The position numbers and the translations under genes are program-made. Positions 154-11,078 of a stretch of DNA of 24,000 nucleotides are shown piece after piece. Every line of letters starts with the position of its first letter. Positions within the stretch are counted from its first letter, which is position 1. The notes beneath the pieces were generated by a model. It had not been told where the DNA came from and searched no databases. It saw nothing but the letters and a program-made list of their open reading frames with translations. Source of the DNA: Acinetobacter sp. c1-l78 (GTDB lineage: Bacteria; Pseudomonadota; Gammaproteobacteria; Pseudomonadales; Moraxellaceae); assembly GCF_041928215.1 (NCBI RefSeq), contig NZ_JBHFHK010000014.1, positions 1-24,000 of the forward strand. The letters run 5' to 3'.

Positions 154-549
154 CTAAATTAGTCTACGCGAAGAGTTTAGTGAGGATGGGTCTAAGATTG
201 TTTTTTCGCCCGAGGATTTAATTTCTAGCTCTATTGACGTTGCATCCTTTTGGATTTTCAAATCGAACATGTCTCTATTTCTAAAGTCATCGCTTCTTAT
301 TTTATCATATTCAATAAGAAATGGTGAAACTCCGGCAATCTCTTGCAGCAAGTATTTCTTGACGATATTTTTTGCCAGATCTCCAAGGAAAATATTCTCA
401 AACCGCTTATGAGGGAATCGCCCTTGCCAAGTATCTGCCGTGTGGTTCGCCTTCTTTAAAGCAGTGCTTTTTGCCCAATTTATTTCTGCAGGCACATCGG
501 CGACAGTGTATTTCTCTACTAGCTTTCCGTTGTTTAACTTGATTCTCAT
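154..549 (-). CDS. Hypothetical small protein (131 aa) with a PD-(D/E)xK-like nuclease motif, possibly 3'-truncated
   Basis: This is track ORF 154..618, whose listed start at 618 is a TTG. The internal ATG at 549 is preceded by AAGGGA with a 5-nt spacer, so I use it as the start. The motif DMFDLKIQKDATSIELEIKSS fits D-x(12)-E-x-K. GC is about 40%, unlike the adjacent res gene. The product call is weak. Confidence 0.4.
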   Translation of the reverse strand: MRIKLNNGKLVEKYTVADVPAEINWAKSTALKKANHTADTWQGRFPHKRFENIFLGDLAKNIVKKYLLQEIAGVSPFLIEYDKIRSDDFRNRDMFDLKIQKDATSIELEIKSSGEKTILDPSSLNSSRRLI

Positions 550-655
550 GATTTCCCTTTGTGAAACACAATCATTTTCCGCCGAAGAAATGCCTCCTGC
601 AACTGCGGAGGCAATCAAGGCTTAGATTTTTCTGAATTTCCTAAGATGCCGGTAT

Positions 656-3600
656 CTATTGTTTGACCAACTCCATAAGTCGGCCAAAGCTATCCACTAC
701 GTCATACTTCACATTTTCAGGTGAGTGGCGACGGTTCATCTCATCGAAAAACTTGCGAGCGCATTTGATCTTGGTTTTCTCGATCTCACGCAGATCCATC
801 GAGGACATCGATCCTTTGGTTTCTGCGACGAAGTAGATGTGCTTCACCGCGCCTTCCTTAAACGAGATGGCCCAGTCTGGGTTGTAGTCGCCGACCGGTG
901 TCGGGATCAAGAAACCGCGCGGCAACTTGGCATACACGACGACCTCAGTGCTGGCCTCCAAAGCCTCCGCAAAATCGCGCTCTGGCTTCGATCCGGAATC
1001 CGGCAGCACGAAGTCGTAGATGTGGTGTCTGGGCGTCTTGACTGCGTTGCTGAAGTCCTGCTTGGTTTGTCCGGCAGTGAAGATGTCTAGATCGAACTTG
1101 TCCTCAACCGGATCGTAGGCCAGATGCTCGATGATGACGGTGGCTTTCTGCTCGTTGATTAGGCGTATCGCCTCGGCAATGAAGCTCTCTGGATTAGTCT
1201 TGAACTGCGTGAATACAGCGGTGCTGAGCCCCTTGAGGATTTCGGTCACCGTACGCCGTGTCAGCAGGGTGCCTTCTGCAAGTTTTCCGATCAGGTCATA
1301 CTTGACCCCTGAATGGATTGAAACGCGGTTAGTTTCCGTCTCAGAGTCCTTCAATTCAAAAGCTTTGCCGCCCTTGATCCCATCGTAGGTCACAGCGGCT
1401 GCCTGTTCACCGTGCTGGATGGTGTACTGCAACGGGGTCACACGAAGCCCTGCATCTTTGTCGTTGAGTGTCTTGACCGCTTTCTGCACCAGCTCGTCGG
1501 AGTTGAAGTCGACGCTGTACGCCGCTTTACGGTTGATCCGATTCCAAAGCTCCTTGAACTCCTGCTTCTCAAAGTTGGCGTTTAGCGGGTTCTTCTTGGG
1601 CTTGCGGTCGTCACCAATTTCGGGCAACAGGCTCTCGCTGAAAACACTGTCAATCAGTTTGAACACCTGCTCGGCATGTGGTGCCAACTCGGGGGGCAGC
1701 GCAGCCAGCGCGCCGTCTTTCTTGGCCTCGTGGTACGCGGTGGTGATGCGATCTGCGTCGTCGGTGTAGTCGTGCTTGAGCAGGTACTTGTAGATCTGCT
1801 TAGCGAGTTGCGGTGTGACCTCGACATCACCAGTCGCTGTCTTCAGAACTTTGCCGGTGAAGTAGGCCTCATTCGCCAAGCGCGGACGCGCCGACAGCGA
1901 CTCGCTGATGTCCTTCTGCAGCGCCGCTACGAAGTCCTTGTAGCTCTCGCTGGCCACCACAGTCAGCACGTTCACTTCGTGTACCGTGGCCGGGTGATCC
2001 ATCCTGTCACCGCTTTGGTTGACGGACAGTCGCAAGCCACGTCCCACTTCCTGGCGGCGGGAAATTGTGTTGTCACTGTGCTTGAGCGCGCAGATCACAA
2101 ACACGTTCGGGTTGTCCCAGCCTTCACGCAGGGCAGAGTGCGAGAAGATGAAGCGCACGGGCTCTACGAACGACAGCAACCGCTCCTTGTCCTTGAGGAT
2201 CAGGTCGTAGGCGTCTACGTCGTCAGAAAGTCCCGCGTTCTCGCCACGCGCTGCGACCTTTCGGTCGGCCAGCCGTTTGCTCTTCTTGTCGATGGAGAAA
2301 TAGCCGCTGTGCGTTTTGTCGGCAGAAATCCCTTTGAGGTATTTGACGTACGGCGTCTCATCCAGCTCCAGCACCTCGTTGAGGTAGAGCTGGTACTCCT
2401 CCTCGAAGATGCGGGCGTACTCACCTTTTTCGTCGGGCTGCGAGTAGTCTCGGTACTTGACCACTTCGTCGATGAAGTAAAGCGTGAGCACCTTCACGCC
2501 TTGCTGGAACAGCGCCTGTTCCTTGTCGAAGTGCGCCTTTATGGCCTCTCGGATCTGTATGCGGCGCAGCGCGGCCTCGGTCACATCACCAGTCGCATCC
2601 CCGACGGTGAGCTCAACGCCATTGGTGAAGCTCAGGGTGTCGGAGTTGGCGTTGATATCGGCTACGACAAATCCATCTCGGTACTGATCGAGCCCGTTCG
2701 ACAGATCGAACAAGTTGTCGCCTTTGGAGAGCTTCCTCACTACCCGCTTGATGTTGCCACCCGCCAGTTTTTGCTCGAACTCCACACGCGCCTCTGGCGG
2801 CTTCTTGCTCGAAATCTCGATGGACTGCAGGTACAGATAACCCGCCGTGCCCGCTAGCCCCTTCACCGCGATGCCGCGCACGGCAATTTTTTTCACCAGC
2901 TTCTGGTTGTAGGCGTCCAGCGCATCGAGACGGTGGATCTTGTTGTGCGTAGTCTTGTGGGTGGCCGAGTAGCGCAACACCATCAACGCCTTGAACTCCT
3001 CCAGCGACTTCAGCGTCTCCTCGCCTTCCATCTTCTGAGGCTCATCCAGGATCAGGATCGGGCGGTTGGCGCTGATCACGTCGATGGGCTTGCGCGACTG
3101 GAAGTCGTCCAATTCTTCGTAGATCCGGCGAGCATCTTTACCAGTAGCATTAAAGACCTGGACGTTGATCACCATCACGTTGATGCCCGCATCCGAAGAG
3201 AAACTCTCCAGGTGGTGCAGCTGCTTTGAGTTGTAGATGAAGAAGCGTGCCTTCTTGTGATAAGTCTCCAAGAAGTGCTCGGCGGTGATCTGCAGCGACT
3301 TGGCCACGCCTTCACGGATGGCGATGCTGGGTACCACGATGATGAACTTGCTCCAGCCGTACTGCTTGTTCAGCTCGAAAATGGTCTTAATATAGCAGTA
3401 GGTCTTGCCCGTGCCCGTTTCCATCTCGATGTCGAGATTGACCTTGGCCACCTTGGTCTTGACCAGTGCGTCCGACACGGGCAGATTCTGGCCGTGCTGC
3501 ACGGCTCGGATGTTGTCGAGCAGCGCTGTTTCCGACAACGTGAAGTCGGCGTTGCGGAATGCGGCTTCCCTTTCCGCTGCAGCTTCAGGCGAAGCGGCCT

Positions 3601-3763
3601 CCAGCGCGAGCGCCGCTTGCGGGCTCGCTGGGGCTGCTTTCTGGCTGCCTGGATCGAGCCGATAGCGAACGCCGCCATGATGCGGAACCTGTCCCTTGAA
3701 ACAGTCCACTACTGCCTGCACGGCCGCCGTCTGGTAGGCCTGCGTCTTGAATTTCAACTTCAT
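656..3763 (-). CDS. res: Type III restriction enzyme Res subunit (SF2 helicase/translocase with C-terminal PD-(D/E)xK endonuclease)
   Basis: 1035 aa. Walker [10 protein letters not shown] lies at GTGKT = 3401-3415. Motif II LILDEPQ lies at DEPQ = 3035-3046. Motif VI is [10 protein letters not shown]. The C-terminal nuclease motif is NPDW...FVAETKG (PD at 875-880, ETK at 815-823). The ATG at 3763 is preceded by GAGGAGG, and the gene starts 10 nt after the mod stop. Confidence 0.9.
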
Positions 3764-3773
3764 CGCCGCCTCC

Positions 3774-5654
3774 TCAAATGCATTTCACTTCGGTTGCAGG
3801 CGACAAGAGCTTGAAAATCTGCTCCACATTGATTTTGACCGCACTGTCCTTGAAACCTGCATCGCGGAACACCACGCGCAGTGGCTGTCGCTTGGCAAGC
3901 TCTTTGACAAAGGCCTCATCAATACCGCCATGCGCATCAAAACAGGCGGCTAATGCATTTTCATCAACAAAGAACACTTCCTTGTCCTGCATGGTTTCTT
4001 TGGTAATTGGCAGCGCCAAGTCAACGCCCCAATCGAGCATCACCTGGAACAGCAGGTCTTCCGCCGTGCGGTCAGGCTTGATGTTGTCAACCAATAAGTC
4101 AAGTTGATCTTTTTCGATTTCGTCTGGGCGATAGTAAACATCCGCCAAATTCGACGAATCGATTTTTAGAACCCGAAAGCCAAAATCGAATACTCCAGCT
4201 GCCGCTTGGTGTACGGTTTTTCCAGCTCGTCTAATTCTCTCCTTTGAGATTTCTGCTATGGTCAAAGGAAGATTATTTTTCGATAGGAAGTCGACCGCTG
4301 GCTTATGCTCCTTCTTGGCTCCGTCAAGCGGCTCTGGTATCTGAATGCCAATCAATTTCAGATTCTTCCCATACTCGAAAGCTGCTTGGAATGTTGATCC
4401 GGAGCCGAGGAAAAAATCAAGGACAACATCTCCTTCTTTGCAATTCGCAATCGCCATCAAATTGCGAATAAGCTTTGGAGGCTTCGGGTTGCTGAATGTG
4501 TTTTTGGTTCCATCCATCAATTCGGTCAGCACCGAATTCCCCTCCTGGTTATGGCCAAATTGCTCATGGCTCCACCAGTTTGTTGCGCATTGACCCTCCT
4601 CTTCGCGCTCGAATTTAAAGTATTTTTTACGCGGAGATCCGTTCCCATTATTTGGGAAGATAATTCTATTGTCTTCAAGAAGCTTCTTGTAGGTGGCTTC
4701 TTCTCCCATCCACTCATCATCAAGACGGTTTCCGGTAGGGGTGACAATTGTGTATCTTGAGCCACTTTGATCGCTGCCCACTTTCCAAGGCTTAGATGCC
4801 CAATCACCTCGTGGGTCGTTGTCTGGGTTCGAAAAAGCTCCCGTTAGTTCGACTTTACCCACCCCGGCAGCTTTGTAGACCCATTTGTCTTTTGCGTAAG
4901 CAAGGATGTGCTCAGCGACCAGACCAATCATTTTGGTTGGGTCGTTCGGTTGATTGCTGCGGCGGCGCCAGTGGATGTGCCCTTCAAAGTTATCTCTTCC
5001 AAAAATCTCGTCGCAGATATTCCGCAGGTTTGCAACTTCCTCGTCGCCGATGGATATAAATATCAATCCATCATCTCTAAGAAGATTTCTGGCGAGCTTA
5101 AGTCGGGAGTACATCATGCTAAGCCAGTCCGAGTGATATCGCCCGCTGCTGTCTGAATTCAGTATAAGACGAGCGCCAGCTTCGTCTCTCTGGTTTGATC
5201 GCGCAAGATAAGCAGATGTATTTTCGGCGAAGTCATCTTCGTAAATAAAATCATCTCCTGTGTTATAGGGAGGATCAATATAGATCATTTTAATTTTGCC
5301 GAGATAAGACTCCTGAAGCAGCTTTAGTCCGTCCAAGTTGTCTCCCTCAATGAACAAATTGCGCGTTTCGCCGAAGTGCAAGCTCTCCTTGATATTTGGT
5401 CTTAGCGTCTTCGCGATGGGGGCGTTAGCAGCGAGTAGAGCCTCTCGTTTCCCTGGCCAGTTTAGGTGGTAGCGCTCTTGCGGACCTTCAGTAATCGACT
5501 CGGCCAACTCCTGTTTCAATTGGTCGAAATCGACGGCCAGCGTCACGCTTCCATCTTTACCCTTGGCTTCCGTCACGCAACCCGGAAACAGATCGCGAAT
5601 GCGTGCGATGTTTTCTTGCGTGAGGTTGGGTGAGTGCATTTTGAGTTTGGTCAT
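3774..5654 (-). CDS. mod: Type III Mod subunit, beta-class N6-adenine (or N4-cytosine) DNA methyltransferase
   Basis: 626 aa. Catalytic motif [12 protein letters not shown] has DPPY at 5265-5276. It precedes the AdoMet motif [10 protein letters not shown] at 4392-4415, which is the beta-class motif order. A long variable region lies between the two motifs and is the putative TRD. The gene sits immediately upstream of res on the same strand. Confidence 0.9.
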
Positions 5655-5694
5655 GTTGGTGCCTTTGGTTGCTTTGCTTCCACCATATCGGGGT

Positions 5695-6393
5695 TCAGCG
5701 GGTTAATTGTTCAAGCTCAGATTTCAATTGCCGCAGGGTTGCGTTGATTTGAACCTTGCGGTTGAATTGTTTTTCCTTAGCTAATTTTGCCTGTGTTTTT
5801 TCAATTTCACGCTGCTTGGCTTGTGCCCGTTCAATGCGCGCAATCCAGTCGGACAAGGCCTCCTGTGGACGTGCTGGCAACGGCATTAAGCCTTGCAGCA
5901 GGACGGCGTACAGGTGGGCCATGTCGAGGGCCACCGGCATAGCCGTACGGGCAGTTGCCGCAGGCATCCAGTCGCTGGTGAAGTAGCTGGATAGCACCCA
6001 GCGACTGGCATCGGCTTCGCTCGGGCGCTTGTAAGCCGCCACTACCTGCGTTTTCGCCTGATCGCCCTGGCCTTGGTGTAGTTCAAACATGATCGGGAAC
6101 TGCACCGCGCCATCAATGCAGCGGAGCACGTCTTCGTGCAGCTCGGTGGACTTGAGCTGGATGCTGAAAATCTGGATTTCCGGCACACCGGGCCGCGCAG
6201 GCAGGTTGATCGTCTCTGGGGCGAGCTTGTACTGCCAGACGATCTGCTCGACCTGCTCGACGAACAGTTCCTTCAGCCGGGTGTTGGCCCCGCTGTGCTC
6301 ATAGATTTTGTTCTTGGGCAGCACGCGCCCGAAAGCAGCTTGCTTGGGGTAGGCGATCAGCGCTGTTTTTTTTGTGGTCACTCCTTGACTCAT
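5695..6393 (-). CDS. DUF4391-like protein of unknown function (232 aa)
   Basis: The track ORF 5695..6606 is trimmed to the ATG at 6393. That ATG overlaps the helicase stop (ATGA, 6390-6393) and has GGAGG 4 nt upstream. The sequence MSQGVTTKKTALIAYPKQAAFGRVLPKNKIYEH...IVWQYKLAPETINLPA...EIQIFSIQLK...VLRCIDGAVQFPIMFEL matches my recollection of the DUF4391 family pattern. The C-terminal ~45 aa are K/E/Q-rich and look like a coiled coil. Confidence 0.7.
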   Translation of the reverse strand: MSQGVTTKKTALIAYPKQAAFGRVLPKNKIYEHSGANTRLKELFVEQVEQIVWQYKLAPETINLPARPGVPEIQIFSIQLKSTELHEDVLRCIDGAVQFPIMFELHQGQGDQAKTQVVAAYKRPSEADASRWVLSSYFTSDWMPAATARTAMPVALDMAHLYAVLLQGLMPLPARPQEALSDWIARIERAQAKQREIEKTQAKLAKEKQFNRKVQINATLRQLKSELEQLTR

Positions 6394-9300
6394 CCTGCCT
6401 CCTGAATCACGAGGAAGCTGATGAGTTCGAAGTCGTCCAGGCCGGAGATGGTGTCTGTCAGTGCTGTGGTCTTGCCACCGCTGAACAGGCTGTCCAAATC
6501 CTTTTCTTCCGTCACCTCGATCATCGAACGGATGGACTTGCCCAACAGGTCGGAGTACGGCTGCATCCGGCGGCCATCCGCCGTTTCCTGATTGAAGCGC
6601 TGGCACACGTCGACGATGGGTTTGTCCTGGCCCTTGCAGCAGGTACGCACTAGATCGAGTAGGCGCTTAACCTCGGTGTGATCATGAATGACCTCTCCCT
6701 CGCGGTTGATGTAGACGAGGTAGTACGGATGCAGGCGGTTGTGCTGGTTGAGGCTGATCCCAGCATTGCGATTGCGCAGCGTGAAGATCGTGCCCGGCCG
6801 CAAGCCCATCTCAGGTCTGGCGGGAACGACGGCGTGCATCCCGTTGGGCACATTGCTCAGTTCGCCCTGGGCTTTGACGTAGTTGAGCAAATCCATGCGG
6901 AAGTCGTTGAGGCCCAGGTCGGTGATGGAGACACCGGTCTTTAAATCCTCCAGCTCGATGACTTCCTCCTGCAGGCGACGTAGTTGTTCCTTGCGGTATG
7001 ACACGTCGTTGGCCTGCGCAGACAGCACGTTGTCGTCACCTGTGGCGGTCACGTCAGCGATCATCATTCGGCTCTCGACGCGCTCTTTGAGGTTGATGTA
7101 CTCGTCGAGCGAAATGTCGGGCCAGTAGTTGACCAGCTGGATGCTGCTATTGGGCGAGCCAATGCGATCTATGCGCCCAAAGCGCTGGATGATGCGTACT
7201 GGGTTCCAGTGGATGTCGTAGTTGATGAGGTAGTCGCAGTCTTGTAGGTTTTGGCCTTCGGAAATGCAATCGGTGCCGATCAGCAGGTCCACCTCGTGCG
7301 GCTCGTCTGGCAGTATCAACGCCTTCTCTTTAGAGCGAGGGGAGAACAGGGTGAGCAGTTCCTGGAAGTCATAGTTGCGCTTCTGAGTTTTGCTCTTGAT
7401 GGTGGACTGCGGTGCCCCCTTGCCGGTGACCTTGGCGGTGTGGATGGCGAGCGTAGCCAGCAGCTCCGGCGCAAGGTTGGCGTACAGGTAATCAGCGGTG
7501 TCAGCAAAGGCTGTGAAGATCAGCACCTTCCTGTTGCCGGGGTTGATTGGGTTTGCAATCTTGCCGAGCAGTTGTGCTTTGAGGTGCTGCAACTTGGCGT
7601 CGTCCTGCGGCGTGATCTTGTTCATCGAAGCCAGCAAGGCATCGATGACCTGTAAGTCCACCTTCAGTTCGTGCTCCCAGGACGGTAAGTCCATGTCGGC
7701 GAGGCTGATCTTGATCTTGCTGCCGATCTCGCCGATCTCGCCGATCTCGTCGCCAGGCATTGGCAGCTCATCGTCCTCTGCATCCAGCACTTCCAGCACT
7801 TCCGTGAGGTCCCCCACCGTGACCGCGCCGCCGGATTGATTGAACGCAGCGATCTTTGCGAGGGTGGCTTCGTTGTTGGCCCGCAGCGATTGCAGCGTTA
7901 GCCGGAACGACTGCACCGAACTTTCAAGCCGTTTGAGCAGGTTGACCGTCATCAGGGCCTGCAGGCTCTTTTCGCGGTCGGCTTGGCGCAGCGTGCCCTT
8001 GCCGCCTACCTTGGTGTCGTAGATCTCCTCGTACTTCTTCAGACGGCTGGGCAGGATGTAGCTGATGGGCGCATACACGGCCAGCTTGAGCAGTGAGAGT
8101 TGCTCGAAAATTTCATTGAAGCCCAACACATCCGACCGCTCGGTCAACGGGCAGTGAAACGACAGCGGTTTGCGGCGCTCCGGAAATTGACCGATGTCCT
8201 TGGTGTCGTAGAAGGTCTGGATGTGCTTACGCGAGCGTGCGATGGTGACGCTGTCCAGCAGTTCGAAGAAGTCGAAGTCCAGTGAATCGAGGATCGCACG
8301 CGCGGTACGTTCTTCCAAGGGGAGCTTCGACCACGCGTTGAACGCTGCTTGTGCGCCTCGGAAAATTTCCTCGACGCTTCTGTCCGTGCGCAGCTTTTTT
8401 GTGAGGTTTTCGGAGTTGCCTTCGTAGGCCAGGGCCAGTTGGTTGCGCAAGTCAGTAAAGCGGTTGTTGACTGGCGTGGCCGACAACATCAGCACCTTGG
8501 TCTTGACCCCTTCTTGGATCACCTTGCGCATCAGCTTCTGGTAGCGGGTTTCCTTATCCTTGTAGGCGTCGTTATTGCGGAAGTTGTGCGACTCATCGAT
8601 GACGACGAGGTCGTAGTTTCCCCAGTTGATTCGGTTCAGCGGCGTACCGAAGGACTCGCCGCTGGTGCGGGACAGATCCGTGTGGCAGAGGACGTCGTAG
8701 TTAAACCGGTCGCGGGCGAAGATGTTGGTCTTGAGGTTGCGGTTGTAGTTCAGCCAGTTATCCGCGAGCTTCTTGGGGCAGAGCACCAGCACTGACCGGT
8801 TGCGCAGTTCGTAATACTTGATGACGGCCAGTGCGGTGAAGGTCTTGCCCAAGCCGACGCTGTCCGCCAGGATGCAGCCGCTGTAGGTTTCCAACTTGTT
8901 GATGATCCCTGTAGCAGCATCCTTCTGGTAGTTGAACAGCTTGTTCCAGATTAGGGTGTCTTGGTAGCCCGTGCGGTCGTTGGGCAGGACGTCTTCGTCG
9001 ATGTCGTCGAGGAACTCGTTGAAGATGTTGTAAAGCATCAGGAAATAGATGCTCTCGGGTGAGTTCTCTTGGTAGACCGAGGCGATGTGCTCGCAAATCT
9101 GCACAGTCACGTCCTCCAGCTTTTCGGGGTCGTTCCAAATTTGATCAAATAGGCTCAGGTACGTGGCAGCAAAGAGTGCCTCGTCCATCTTGTTGACGAG
9201 GTTGGAAACCGCATTGCCTTGCTGGTACCCGAGATCGACAGCGGTGAACCCGTGCAGGGGCATGTAAGCCGTGTCGGTGCCGCCAGCCTGCACGCAGGCG

Positions 9301-9689
9301 AACTGCTGCATCGGCGCTTTGGTGCGGTTGCTCTTGAATTTGGCCTTGCGCCGTATCCACTCAGCACACTCCTTAGCCACCGCCCGCTGGGTGAGCTTGT
9401 TGCGCAGCTGGATTTCAAACTCGCTGCCGTAGAGGCTGCGCTCGCGGTCGAGCTTGGGGATGTGGAACTCCTTTCGCTCTTTGCGAATCTTGTCGGTGAC
9501 CTCGTTGGCAACAAAGGTGGGCGAGGTGAAGATAAAGTCCAGCTCGTCAATTTTTCCCAGCTCGGCTTTCAGCGCCTCGAAGGCGTACATCGAAAAGCAC
9601 GAGGCCGCGACCTTCAGGCGCGCGCCTGGCCGGAGGGTCTGCTTGAGATCGTCGCCAAGCAACCTGCTGATATTGTCGATCAGTTCCAT
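6390..9689 (-). CDS. SNF2-family (SF2) helicase-related ATPase with an uncharacterised ~250 aa N-terminal domain
   Basis: 1099 aa. Motif I ILADSVGLGKTFTA has GLGKT at 8841-8855. Motif Ia is VLVLCPKKLADNW. Motif II VVIDESHNFRN has DESH at 8586-8597. Motif III is LMLSATPVNN. Motifs IV-VI are KVLIFTAF, LIGTDCISEGQNLQ and HWNPVRIIQRFGRIDRIGS. I found no ATPase or nuclease motif in aa 1-250. Confidence 0.9.
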   Translation of the reverse strand: MELIDNISRLLGDDLKQTLRPGARLKVAASCFSMYAFEALKAELGKIDELDFIFTSPTFVANEVTDKIRKERKEFHIPKLDRERSLYGSEFEIQLRNKLTQRAVAKECAEWIRRKAKFKSNRTKAPMQQFACVQAGGTDTAYMPLHGFTAVDLGYQQGNAVSNLVNKMDEALFAATYLSLFDQIWNDPEKLEDVTVQICEHIASVYQENSPESIYFLMLYNIFNEFLDDIDEDVLPNDRTGYQDTLIWNKLFNYQKDAATGIINKLETYSGCILADSVGLGKTFTALAVIKYYELRNRSVLVLCPKKLADNWLNYNRNLKTNIFARDRFNYDVLCHTDLSRTSGESFGTPLNRINWGNYDLVVIDESHNFRNNDAYKDKETRYQKLMRKVIQEGVKTKVLMLSATPVNNRFTDLRNQLALAYEGNSENLTKKLRTDRSVEEIFRGAQAAFNAWSKLPLEERTARAILDSLDFDFFELLDSVTIARSRKHIQTFYDTKDIGQFPERRKPLSFHCPLTERSDVLGFNEIFEQLSLLKLAVYAPISYILPSRLKKYEEIYDTKVGGKGTLRQADREKSLQALMTVNLLKRLESSVQSFRLTLQSLRANNEATLAKIAAFNQSGGAVTVGDLTEVLEVLDAEDDELPMPGDEIGEIGEIGSKIKISLADMDLPSWEHELKVDLQVIDALLASMNKITPQDDAKLQHLKAQLLGKIANPINPGNRKVLIFTAFADTADYLYANLAPELLATLAIHTAKVTGKGAPQSTIKSKTQKRNYDFQELLTLFSPRSKEKALILPDEPHEVDLLIGTDCISEGQNLQDCDYLINYDIHWNPVRIIQRFGRIDRIGSPNSSIQLVNYWPDISLDEYINLKERVESRMMIADVTATGDDNVLSAQANDVSYRKEQLRRLQEEVIELEDLKTGVSITDLGLNDFRMDLLNYVKAQGELSNVPNGMHAVVPARPEMGLRPGTIFTLRNRNAGISLNQHNRLHPYYLVYINREGEVIHDHTEVKRLLDLVRTCCKGQDKPIVDVCQRFNQETADGRRMQPYSDLLGKSIRSMIEVTEEKDLDSLFSGGKTTALTDTISGLDDFELISFLVIQEAG
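7722..7748 (-). repeat. Perfect 9-bp tandem repeat x3 (gccgatctc on the + strand) inside the helicase gene, encoding (EIG)x3
   Basis: The sequence reads directly as gccgatctc gccgatctc gccgatctc. It translates to the GDEIGEIGEIGSK stretch of the helicase. Confidence 0.95.
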
Positions 9690-9692
9690 CAG

Positions 9693-9893
9693 TCACTTAC
9701 CCCCGAATCCTTGTTGGTCAGATTGGTAGCAATTCATTCGTCCAGGTCGCTGCGATGGAAGCGCCACGTGCCGCCTAGCTTGAAAGCGAGAAGCCTTGCC
9801 TTCGGCTGCGAGACGGTAGACGGTGCGCTTGCCAGCCTTCAAGTAAGCGGCTACCTCGTCCAGAGTCAGGATTTCACCTTCCAAGTCTGCCAT
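9693..9893 (-). pseudogene. Excisionase/MerR-like helix-turn-helix (HTH_17-type) DNA-binding gene, apparently frameshifted
   Basis: The ATG at 9893 follows AAAGGCGAG. The N-terminus MADLEGEILTLDEVAAYLKAGKRTVYRLAAEGK is a typical HTH. After K33 the read frame gives unrelated sequence. The +1 frame instead encodes LLAFKLGGTWRFHRSDLDE, the conserved wing, and then a TGA at 9734-9736. Confidence 0.6.
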
Positions 9894-9965
9894 CGTCTCG
9901 CCTTTGCCGTTGATGAATATAAATTGCCAAGATTTGCCAATTTTTCCATATAACGGCGAATTAGG
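9894..9965 (-). promoter_or_regulatory. Putative promoter/operator region of the HTH-helicase-DUF4391-mod-res operon
   Basis: This AT-rich stretch sits at the head of the operon. TTGCCAA occurs at 9924-9930 and 9934-9940 (TTGGCAA on the coding strand), so the two copies are phased 10 bp apart. A third TTGCC lies at 9904-9908, and there is a TATATT-like element. I could not place a clean -35/-10 pair with 17-bp spacing. Confidence 0.3.
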
Positions 9966-10009
9966 CAAGAGGCTGGGCGAAGAAAAACAGCCAAATCGTC
10001 GAATCGACG

Positions 10010-10079
10010 GACTCAGGAGCCATGCGTTACTATCTGGTTCTGAAAGCGGACGCGGGTTCGGTTCCGTGTTCCGCCACCA
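10010..10079 (+). other. Degenerate tRNA/tmRNA 3'-end-like remnant (possible former attachment-site scar)
   Basis: The sequence gcggacgcgggttcg (10046-10060) followed by ...ccgccacca, ending at 10079, resembles the T-arm/acceptor 3' end GGACGCGGGTTC...CCACCA that I recall from tmRNA and some tRNAs. The 3' half of the T stem and the acceptor complement are not preserved, and no 5' half is present. Confidence 0.35.
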
Positions 10080-10254: not shown

Positions 10255-10764
10255 TCAAGCAGCATAGCTTGACCGATTTAATGAACGATAGTAAATATTT
10301 TCTGCCTCAACAGGTGACAAATATTCATTAGTAGAATGTAATCGTTCATGGTTGTACCAGTGTACCCAATCAAGGGTTGCCGATGCAACATCCTTTACAC
10401 CCTCCCATTCATGTTTAAAATAATCAATTACCTCCGTTTTGTATAGCCCATTCACACTTTCAGCAAGAGCGTTGTCATAAGAATCGCCAGTCGTACCAAC
10501 CGACAATGACACGCTTAAATACGTCAATGACAAAGGCGGTATAGACCCAGCCTGTTTTTGTCTTGATGTGGTGAAATCAGCCACCCATACTTTTTTAATC
10601 CGTGCAAGCAGGTAGCTGTGGTTTTGTTTACGGCGACTTTGTTTTTCTGGGTTGTCCTGTTCGTCTTTGATACGATAGTAGGTGGATGGGGCGATTGGCA
10701 GGATTCTGCAAATCGACTCGACCCCATATAAGGATTTCTCATCATCAATGAATTTGACCATCAC
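10255..10764 (-). pseudogene. IS3-family transposase OrfB remnant (frameshift plus ~0.3 kb internal deletion; middle D of the DDE triad missing)
   Basis: The frame reads ...VWVADFT and then garbles. A shifted frame reads IKTKTGWVYTAFVIDVFKRVIVGW, the expected continuation. The sequence then jumps directly to GTTGDSYDNALAES...LYKTE, the region around the DDE glutamate. The HSDxGxQ-type block is absent. Confidence 0.8.
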
Positions 10765-11078
10765 TTGCGTGGGCGGTCGAGCTCCGCCTGGGCGAAAAAA
10801 GCGGCGGCTTTACGAATGATTTCGTTGGCTTGTTTGAGTTCTTTATTTTCTCGTTCAAGTTCCGCAATGCGAGTAGCCTGGCTTTCAACAGTTACGGTAG
10901 TGGGATTTTGTTTGGCTAGGTGCTTTTGATGCCATGAACGAAGGGTTTCAGGTGTGCATCCGATTTTGGGTGCTATGGCTTGTATGGCTACCCATAGTGT
11001 GGGATAGTCTTTTTGTGAGTCGATGAGTAGTTCAACGGCTCGAGTCTTGATTTCAGTTGAGTATTGTTTGTTTTTCAT
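10761..11078 (-). CDS. IS3-family transposase OrfA (HTH DNA-binding subunit, 105 aa)
   Basis: The sequence is MKNKQYSTEIKTRAVELLIDSQKDYPTLW...ELERENKELKQANEIIRKAAAFFAQAELDRPRK. It has the HTH plus leucine-zipper-like C-terminus typical of IS3 OrfA. It overlaps orfB, which lies in the -1 frame. Confidence 0.85.
   Translation of the reverse strand: MKNKQYSTEIKTRAVELLIDSQKDYPTLWVAIQAIAPKIGCTPETLRSWHQKHLAKQNPTTVTVESQATRIAELERENKELKQANEIIRKAAAFFAQAELDRPRK
10794..10800 (-). promoter_or_regulatory. Candidate -1 programmed ribosomal frameshift heptamer U UUU UUC linking orfA to orfB
   Basis: The minus strand reads GCT TTT TTC in the orfA frame, which fits the X XXY YYZ pattern. The -1 frame is open from here into orfB (..FFRPGGARPPTQVMVKFIDDEK..). 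IS3-family elements classically make OrfAB by -1 frameshifting. Confidence 0.5.

Follow-up and report, generated by a model that had tools for sequence, protein, structure and literature searches.

Type III restriction-modification (R-M) enzymes are the standard example of restriction that depends on two sites communicating over a long distance. Classical systems of this type (EcoP1I/EcoP15I) are made up of a mod gene and a res gene; Type III Mods normally methylate alone, EcoP15I-type enzymes hemimethylate an asymmetric site, and cleavage follows once a sliding complex, triggered by ATP, encounters another complex that is bound to a site in the inverse orientation. Here, we describe a relative of these systems in a stretch of 24,000 nt from Acinetobacter sp. 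c1-l78 (contig NZ_JBHFHK010000014.1), referred to below as the window, to which all coordinates refer. Four intact, tightly packed genes on the minus strand (656–9689) encode an SNF2 helicase, a DUF4391 protein, a Type III Mod, and a Type III Res. Comparison with related loci indicates that these four genes very probably form one functional system, and the block is best read as a Type III R-M derivative with four components, in which a Type III core is combined with an accessory motor module driven by ATP.

Murray et al. (2021; PMC8259958) reported, without an explanation, that in some Type III systems a further gene for a helicase-like ATPase lies 5′ of mod; in group 3 of that study (BspHIV, Eco86II), this gene encodes a superfamily 2 (SF2) ATPase with no nuclease motif, which was linked to the system through "guilt by association" and occurs in >500 genomes. 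For this group, mod alone led to 98.9% methylation, and a Mod+Res fraction with no helicase peptides cut DNA approximately 25 bp from the site (PMC8259958). The association of a helicase with Type III systems has thus not gone wholly unnoticed, while DUF4391 is unmentioned there; the cassette is a Type III variant that has been partly noticed and that is not in the PADLOC-DB v2 catalogue as such. Annotation tools in present use record it simply as Type III R-M, with DUF4391 left unassigned. A further comparison is offered by MANTIS (also Gao_RL or GAO_29), a methylation-based system with two ATPases and the gene order MtsA-B-C-D, in which MtsA is a DUF499 ORC/Cdc6-type AAA+ protein and MtsB is a small (DUF3870) protein (bioRxiv 10.64898/2026.09.23.753747).

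Layout and conservation of the four-gene cassette

Read along the minus strand, the cassette comprises genes for an SNF2 helicase with a putatively inactive phospholipase D (PLD)-fold domain (iPLD-SNF2; 6390–9689, 1099 amino acids [aa]), the DUF4391 protein (5695–6393, 232 aa counted from the ATG at 6393), a beta-class N6/N4 DNA methyltransferase (mod; 3774–5654, 626 aa), and a Type III restriction subunit (res; 656–3763, 1035 aa). The helicase stop and the DUF4391 start have the ATGA at 6390–6393 in common, with AGGAGG close upstream; 40 nt separate the DUF4391 stop from the mod ATG, and 10 nt separate the mod stop (TGA) from the res ATG, with GAGGAGG straddling the mod stop. These junctions, re-read in the sequence, bear out the near-zero spacing between the four core genes that had been claimed in an initial annotation made from the sequence alone. 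All ten motifs re-read in the same way lie where that annotation had placed them, and Pfam profiles back its DUF4391, SNF2, methyltransferase, Res, and helix-turn-helix (HTH) assignments. The five-gene operon that it described holds for four working genes, which are packed on the same strand; the fifth gene (HTH) is a broken regulator. A simple scan of the block interior found no excess of promoter-like or terminator-like sites. The G+C content (GC) of the block is 56–58%, as compared to 35–45% in the flanks, and the window cassette represents the minimal form, with zero embedded cargo.

One genome per species (185,579 species) was scanned with two DUF4391 peptide patterns, which were narrow, yielding 414 stretches with a relative; the best 80 of these 414 stretches were taken with 10-kb flanks and searched by tblastn with the four window proteins. 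Sixty-five of the 80 loci had enough contig to be informative; the other 15 end at contig ends, and none of them is contrary. All 65 informative loci shared the gene order of the window (helicase–DUF4391–mod–res), with the four genes on one strand, and in all 65 the end of the helicase gene meets the start of the DUF4391 gene. DUF4391 homologues thus sit beside an SNF2 helicase, mod, and res, both at these loci and in all distant plasmid examples examined, which span bacterial phyla and one archaeon. Comparative genomics therefore supports the proposal that the helicase and DUF4391 are partners of Mod/Res, and not chance neighbours; to the extent that computation can decide, the proposal withstands the refuting conditions stated with it. 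Mean identity to the window proteins across loci was 86% for the helicase, 81% for Res, 71% for DUF4391, and 57% for Mod. Among 56 loci, identity was correlated between helicase and DUF4391 (Spearman rho = 0.72), helicase and Res (0.52), and DUF4391 and Res (0.50); Mod identity was uncorrelated with that of the other three proteins. Judging from these patterns, helicase, DUF4391, and Res are inherited together, and Mod varies only in its target recognition domain (TRD).

The same order is found in distant copies, with DUF4391 identities of 46% in Escherichia coli IncF plasmids, 36% in Acinetobacter sp. NEB149, 23% in the archaeon Methanomethylovorans hollandica, and 20% in Providencia; copies in Leuconostoc, Desulforapulum, and Enterococcus also present this order. 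Plasmids of Acinetobacter, Enterococcus, Lactococcus, and Listeria carry the cassette. In a reverse test that started from the 40 plasmids whose Res shares at least 52% identity with the window protein, DUF4391 was detected in 38. In E. coli, the helicase was found by blastn in 88 of 5426 complete genomes, including CFT073 and ABU 83972, in three lineages (CFT073/ABU 83972/clone D, IncF-plasmid type, and NCTC11121 type); in every annotated example DUF4391 is accompanied by genes for a methyltransferase and a Type III endonuclease, the gene order is kept in all three lineages, and the E. coli copies sit in CP4-like integrative islands. The cassette of E. coli clone D i14 (L002) and of the asymptomatic-bacteriuria strain ABU 83972 and the reference uropathogen CFT073 (hits H200–H202) has all four genes and a WYL-domain regulator, and the island in these strains also has BrxA and phosphorothioate-dependent endonuclease pseudogenes.

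The Type III core, the helicase, and the DUF4391 protein

Res matches the Pfam families ResIII and RE_endonuc (PF19778; 1.8e-30), the PADLOC profile REase_III over its full length (E = 0), and EcoP15I Res (4zcf_C; 2.4e-74). It combines an SF2 ATPase (GTGKT at 3401–3415, DEPQ at 3035–3046, and QEVGRGLR at 2030–2053) and, at the C-terminus, a PD-(D/E)xK endonuclease (PD at 875–880 and ETK at 815–823); these motifs are encoded on the minus strand. The ATPase motifs and PD..ETK are invariant in seven diverse homologues ranging from archaea to Firmicutes, and PD..ETK at the Res C-terminus is indeed the sole intact nuclease motif of the cassette, as noted at the outset. Homology identifies Res as the ATP-dependent nuclease subunit, of the Type III kind. 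Its score against the NCBIfam EcoP15I/StyLTI equivalog PRK15483 (383.8 bits) is below the cut-off of 564, which places Res in a separate clade.

Mod matches N6_N4_Mtase in Pfam (1e-34) and, over its full length, MTase_III in PADLOC (4e-214), as well as the solved Mod 6k0w (1.3e-63) and EcoP15I Mod (3e-47). Its DPPY motif (5265–5276, aa 127–130, minus strand) precedes FLGSG (4398–4412, aa 415–419, minus strand), the latter falling within the 4392–4415 range given for FxGxG in the initial annotation. Both features of Type III membership are present, i.e., a beta-class Mod architecture and a Res with SF2 motifs and a C-terminal PD-(D/E)xK domain; the system as a whole is not a two-gene mod-res unit. 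Among 63 relatives, per-position identity is 12–22% in a hypervariable TRD (approximately aa 226–375) between DPPY and FLGSG and 62–91% outside the TRD, at the N- and C-terminal parts, and the Mod termini are more conserved than the catalytic core. Confinement of divergence to the TRD is the pattern expected for TRD swapping on a constant chassis. Homology identifies Mod as the specificity and self-marking subunit, with a swappable TRD.

The helicase (Pfam SNF2-rel_dom and Helicase_C) contains GLGKT (8841–8855), DESH (8586–8597), and QRFGRIDRIGS (7155–7187), all on the minus strand, so that motifs and profiles agree on two separate SF2 motors in the cassette, one of the SNF2 type and one of the Res type, as first annotated. 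GLGKT, DESH, and QRFGRxDRxG are invariant in eight helicase homologues from archaea, Firmicutes, and Proteobacteria, which indicates an ATPase under selection. The top PADLOC match is C3a139 ("HKD+Snf2"; 1.7e-120), which covers only aa 180–1095, with the DrmD, BrxH, HmaA, and DpdE profiles far behind; we take the C3a139 family to be the MtsD effector of MANTIS, both being described as HKD + SF2/Snf2. SNF2h/SMARCA5 and RapA are the nearest solved sequences. The C-terminal approximately 250 aa have no Pfam match, and their profile found nothing significant among PDB sequences.

Upstream of the motor, the helicase has a PLD-fold domain (approximately aa 1–210), for which the evidence is structural. 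An AlphaFold model of aa 1–250 presented a mean predicted local distance difference test score (pLDDT) of 65, with core blocks at 75–93, and its Foldseek matches were solely PLD-superfamily structures; the best was SauUSI (7clg; E = 1e-4, probability 1.0), and others included the NgoAVII R protein, phosphatidylserine synthase (PssA), PPK1, PLD, and Tdp1. At the sequence level, HxK....D is absent from the first 250 residues of eight helicase homologues, which do not have an invariant His there either; no PLDc Pfam match was found in six diverse members, a profile of the N-terminus gave nothing meaningful against PDB sequences, and the helicase has no PD-ExK motif. A PLD fold without HxK indicates a PLD-nuclease-helicase with a dead nuclease, hence the designation iPLD-SNF2. 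The helicase thus appears to descend from PLD-nuclease-helicase effectors of the SauUSI or MANTIS MtsD kind, with HxK lost and the ATPase motifs kept. Three database proteins (P0231, P0461, and P0491) join the helicase N-terminal region to DUF4391 without the helicase C-lobe; these are probably deletion or assembly products, and P0231 and P0491, which also retain part of the SNF2 core, were not used as evidence.

The 232-aa protein matches DUF4391 (PF14335) at E = 4.3e-58 and 197.4 bits (gathering threshold, 29.9) over profile positions 2–232 of 232. This family is sizeable; a library of 1.84 billion representatives contains 1494 of its clusters (50% identity level) at E ≤ 0.001. An AlphaFold 2 model (pLDDT 89.8; predicted template-modelling score 0.81) presents an alpha/beta domain (approximately residues 12–140) followed by a long C-terminal helical hairpin that bears an invariant EKQFNRK...N...R motif. 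Foldseek found no fold relative of this model in the PDB or BFVD, a profile search found no match among PDB sequences, and PADLOC-DB v2 has no model for DUF4391. The literature agrees with the initial annotation that DUF4391 has no assigned function; there is no functional work on DUF4391, searches for PF14335 and IPR025503 gave no papers, and the term appears in a genome-enrichment table and in a paper on the structure of phage Goslar (bioRxiv 10.64898/2026.04.21.720040). In the latter, DUF4391 is evidently a slip for DUF7941 and uninformative on this family.

Regulator, cassette edges, and embedded genes in relatives

Upstream of the helicase gene lies an open reading frame (ORF) for a small HTH_17 (excisionase-type) regulator (9693–9893, with the ORF extending to 9968; minus strand), which as it stands ends 3 nt before the helicase ATG, in line with the first description, and of which only profile positions 2–27 of 51 match HTH_17 in Pfam. 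We compared it with the DNA upstream of the cassettes of Ottowia (L004), Stenotrophomonas (L005), Extensimonas (L012), and a Chromatiaceae metagenome-assembled genome (L013). The DNA alignment with these four relatives revealed an extra G at 9794/9795 in the window; in addition, the ancestral frame contains a TGA at 9734–9736 where the relatives carry TGG. The intact protein of the relatives has 66 aa (MADPEGEILTLDEVAAYLKAGKRTVYRLAAEGKLPAFKLGGTWRFRRSDLDEWI...), and the stop codon of its gene runs into the helicase start as TGATG. The window regulator, frameshifted as it stands, is either a pseudogene or possibly the product of a sequencing error. Other lineages have a 59–65-aa HTH protein or a 301-aa WYL-domain protein in this role; WYL-type regulators control BREX and other defence loci (PMC9122601).

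A conserved non-coding leader (9894–10079, minus strand), delimited by DNA alignment and by the limits of blastn homology, precedes the regulator. Homology to related islands has sharp limits, which coincide with the res stop (656/657) on one side and lie at 10079 on the other. The latter limit is marked exactly by a 34-nt block (10046–10079, plus strand; GCGGACGCGGGTTCGGTTCCGTGTTCCGCCACCA) that is kept in four other genomes, ends in CCACCA, and resembles the 3′ end of a tRNA (T-arm-like sequence and CCA). ARAGORN and Rfam identified no tRNA at 10046–10079, and no integrase is present in the window; the block may be an attachment-site remnant. The cassette (656–10079) is, by its composition and homology limits, a self-contained and presumably horizontally acquired 9.4-kb high-GC import into a low-GC chromosome, and its nearest relatives are mostly betaproteobacterial.

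An element of the insertion sequence (IS) family IS3 lies beside the cassette (10255–11078, minus strand), with orfA at 10761–11078, an ALIL frameshift pseudoknot at 10687–10803 (101 bits), and orfB at 10255–10764 (169 aa), which looks short for an IS3 orfB. Beyond it are chromosomal housekeeping genes, namely ruvA, ruvB, creD, tsaD, and YqeY-like and ppiD-like genes. Directly 3′ of res and outside the region common to related islands is a 154-aa ORF (154–618, minus strand; GC approximately 44%) with no Pfam match. IS elements interrupt the cassette itself in E. coli NCTC11121 (L091), E. coli 0H26 (L001), and two other loci (L085 and L096), with an IS3 between helicase and DUF4391, an IS30 within mod, an IS1 after mod, and, in Listeria plasmid pLI100, a cassette remnant scrambled by IS1216; such interruptions in several strains suggest frequent inactivation.

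About half of the relatives have additional genes, known defence genes among them, within the cassette. A gap of 0.4–6.4 kb separates DUF4391 and mod in 34 of the 65 relatives, and a gap of 0.4–2 kb separates mod and res in 21 of the 65; by tblastn alignment coordinates, the gaps are otherwise 19–185 nt (all but one ≤68 nt) between DUF4391 and mod and 14–278 nt (≤17 nt in 42 of 44) between mod and res. Only these two fixed joints, one following DUF4391 and the other following mod, receive insertions, and the four genes are not otherwise separated. The inserted same-strand genes form 18 clusters, ten of which were scanned; the cargo identified includes SIR2+HerA, an Old/GajA/AriA-like ATPase, the candidate families PDC-S02, PDC-S06, and PDC-S13, and a UvrD-like helicase. 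The last is encoded by a 900-aa "ATP-binding" cargo gene of E. coli and Aeromonas relatives, for which a MORC/GHKL assignment was considered and ruled out in favour of a UvrD-like superfamily 1 helicase. Cargo-bearing loci include L019, L021, L023, L028, L030, and L040, and the Old/GajA-like ATPase has a 469-aa partner without a PADLOC match. Embedding of this kind matches published observations on Hma, BREX, DISARM, and Type I R-M (bioRxiv 10.1101/2024.01.29.577857). The embedded defence cargo lends independent support to the four genes being one co-regulated defence unit, and the cassette appears to serve also as a scaffold for other defence genes in relatives; as a recurrent landing pad for such genes, it is usable for discovery by "guilt by embedding".

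Readings of the mechanism and comparison with known systems

For the helicase and DUF4391 specifically, we tentatively propose the role of an accessory motor. The helicase and the translationally coupled DUF4391 protein would constitute an accessory module, with an ATP-driven motor for double-stranded DNA and an adaptor, in which iPLD-SNF2 may be dimeric via its PLD-fold domain, as in solved PLD nucleases and MtsD, and DUF4391 would adapt the motor to the conserved Mod termini and/or to Res. This module would act in restriction in vivo, and not in basic methylation or in cleavage in vitro, possibly by directed long-range site communication, by clearing DNA-bound proteins, or by activating or gating Res on invading DNA. 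Transcription of the operon would be under the control of the small HTH gene, which is broken in the window and in whose place other lineages have a WYL/BrxR-like regulator. It is also conceivable, and more doubtful, that the motor-adaptor complex changes the Type III rules, with directed translocation in place of passive one-dimensional sliding and/or a coupling to the embedded defence genes; if true, cleavage would extend to single sites or to sites in the same orientation, or to phage DNA coated with proteins, and the cassette would represent a separate class of ATP-dependent R-M enzymes, with four subunits and a new protein fold at its centre.

Several observations weigh against the reading as a four-component system with an accessory motor. 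Two plasmids, Aeromonas veronii pHX3 (L089; Res 77.6% identical) and Clostridium taeniosporum pCt3 (L090; 53.7%), carry mod and res only, with zero remnant of the helicase or DUF4391 genes, indicating that these two genes are dispensable at least for carriage; pHX3 retains an embedded AAA+DUF4276 pair that is found in the four-gene copy of Aeromonas media and thus looks like a derivative minus the first two genes. The model of the helicase N-terminus is of moderate confidence only (pLDDT 65), and expression of the cassette in the window is uncertain because its regulator is pseudogenised. The Murray biochemistry also carries limited weight here, since the 88 E. coli genomes with a blastn match to the helicase (a comparison at the DNA level only) do not include E. 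coli NCTC86 (NZ_LT601384.1; Eco86II), which was part of the collection searched, and no small ORF was described in that group.

The persistence of mod-res-only derivatives, together with the mod-alone and Mod+Res results of Murray et al., is also what leads us to prefer an accessory motor over a MANTIS-like loader or regulator, in which helicase and DUF4391 would load or activate Mod, or time methylation versus restriction, with Res as the effector; the two proteins would then correspond to MtsA and MtsB in their action on the MtsC methyltransferase. A loader would fit a gene order that formally equals MtsA-B-C-D in a system that also has two ATPases (bioRxiv 10.64898/2026.09.23.753747), the position of the translationally coupled helicase and DUF4391 genes immediately upstream of mod, and the higher conservation of the Mod termini than of the catalytic core. 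However, MtsA and MtsB have no homologue among the cassette proteins. Methylation by Mod alone is normal for Type III systems, with 98.9% methylation by mod alone in the Murray group (whose helicase may be of another family), and the mod-res-only plasmids persist, a state in which an active Res would kill the host if Mod depended on a loader; we therefore regard a loader as unlikely.

The existence of mod-res without the helicase-DUF4391 pair could, alternatively, point to a second layer or guard, in which the pair is separate from the enzyme and senses anti-restriction or modified DNA or triggers the embedded genes. The approximately 250 unassigned C-terminal residues of the helicase could be a reader domain, SauUSI, the closest match of the helicase N-terminus, is modification-dependent, and insertions directly after DUF4391 occur in 34 of the 65 relatives, with defence genes among the scanned cargo. 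Such a guard is nevertheless distinctly improbable, as the pair was always accompanied by mod (and by res, where the flank permits) at the 65 genome loci and in all plasmids examined, the identities of helicase and DUF4391 correlate with that of Res, neither of the two proteins has a nuclease or other effector domain, and the window cassette has zero embedded cargo. The mobility of the cassette, as seen in the GC jump, the attachment-site-like end, and the adjacent IS3 in the window and in the CP4-like islands of E. coli, might suggest that helicase-DUF4391 and mod-res are merely co-mobilised neighbours with no functional link. Order, strand, and near-zero spacing, however, hold down to 20% DUF4391 identity, across domains and on chromosomes and unrelated plasmids, and insertions occur at two fixed joints only, with the four genes remaining together; simple hitch-hiking is thus extremely unlikely and, on the strength of synteny, already close to refuted.

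A widespread lineage that has a second, nuclease-dead SNF2 motor and a protein with no known fold relative suggests an unrecognised control layer or a different communication mechanism in Type III restriction. The cassette is common and experimentally tractable, with copies in CFT073 and ABU 83972. In addition, MANTIS shows that ATPase pairs can gate methylation and restriction, and the cassette would provide a second, unrelated test case.

Among other methylation-based systems, Hma was ruled out, as it has a 5-methylcytosine methyltransferase and a different ATPase (PMC8565338) and HmaA matched the helicase at only 7e-23. DISARM, to which the initial annotation compared the cassette, is a methylation-based multigene defence system that likewise includes an SNF2-family ATPase, and DrmD gave a weak profile match; the comparison stands insofar as the SNF2 fold is common to both, but the closer helicase relative is the HKD+Snf2 family of Gao_RL/MANTIS. 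Membership in DISARM was ruled out, with a DrmD score of 137 against an NCBIfam cut-off of 610, weak DrmA and DrmD matches to the helicase SF2 core only, and no match to DrmB (DUF1998) or DrmC among the five cassette proteins, whose methyltransferase and nuclease are a Type III Mod and Res. SauUSI, the best structural match of the helicase N-terminus, has the same layout of a PLD domain followed by an SF2 motor; in the cassette, by contrast, HxK is missing in all examined homologues, the motor is of the SNF2 type, and the protein is a member of a four-gene cassette and not stand-alone. With MANTIS, the cassette shares two ATPases and the order ATPase, small protein, methyltransferase, helicase-nuclease; it differs in that the methyltransferase is of another class, the dead-PLD SNF2 protein comes first, and the nuclease is supplied by a Type III Res. 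Membership in Gao_RL/MANTIS was ruled out because the five proteins include no DUF499 AAA+ protein or MtsB; the helicase core is homologous, with its HKD dead.

The systems closest in kind are those of Type III, and of published descriptions that of Murray group 3 comes nearest. As in this group, the window has an extra SF2 ATPase gene without a nuclease motif 5′ of mod; unlike the cassette, the Murray systems have three genes, with no small or DUF4391-like ORF described, approximately 140 bp of non-coding DNA between the helicase gene and mod in BspHIV, and N4-methylcytosine as the modification made. With classical Type III systems, the cassette has in common a Mod and a Res homologous to the EcoP15I subunits and a mod gene directly upstream of res; it departs from them in having two extra co-conserved genes and a dedicated regulator upstream and, in relatives, cargo between the core genes.

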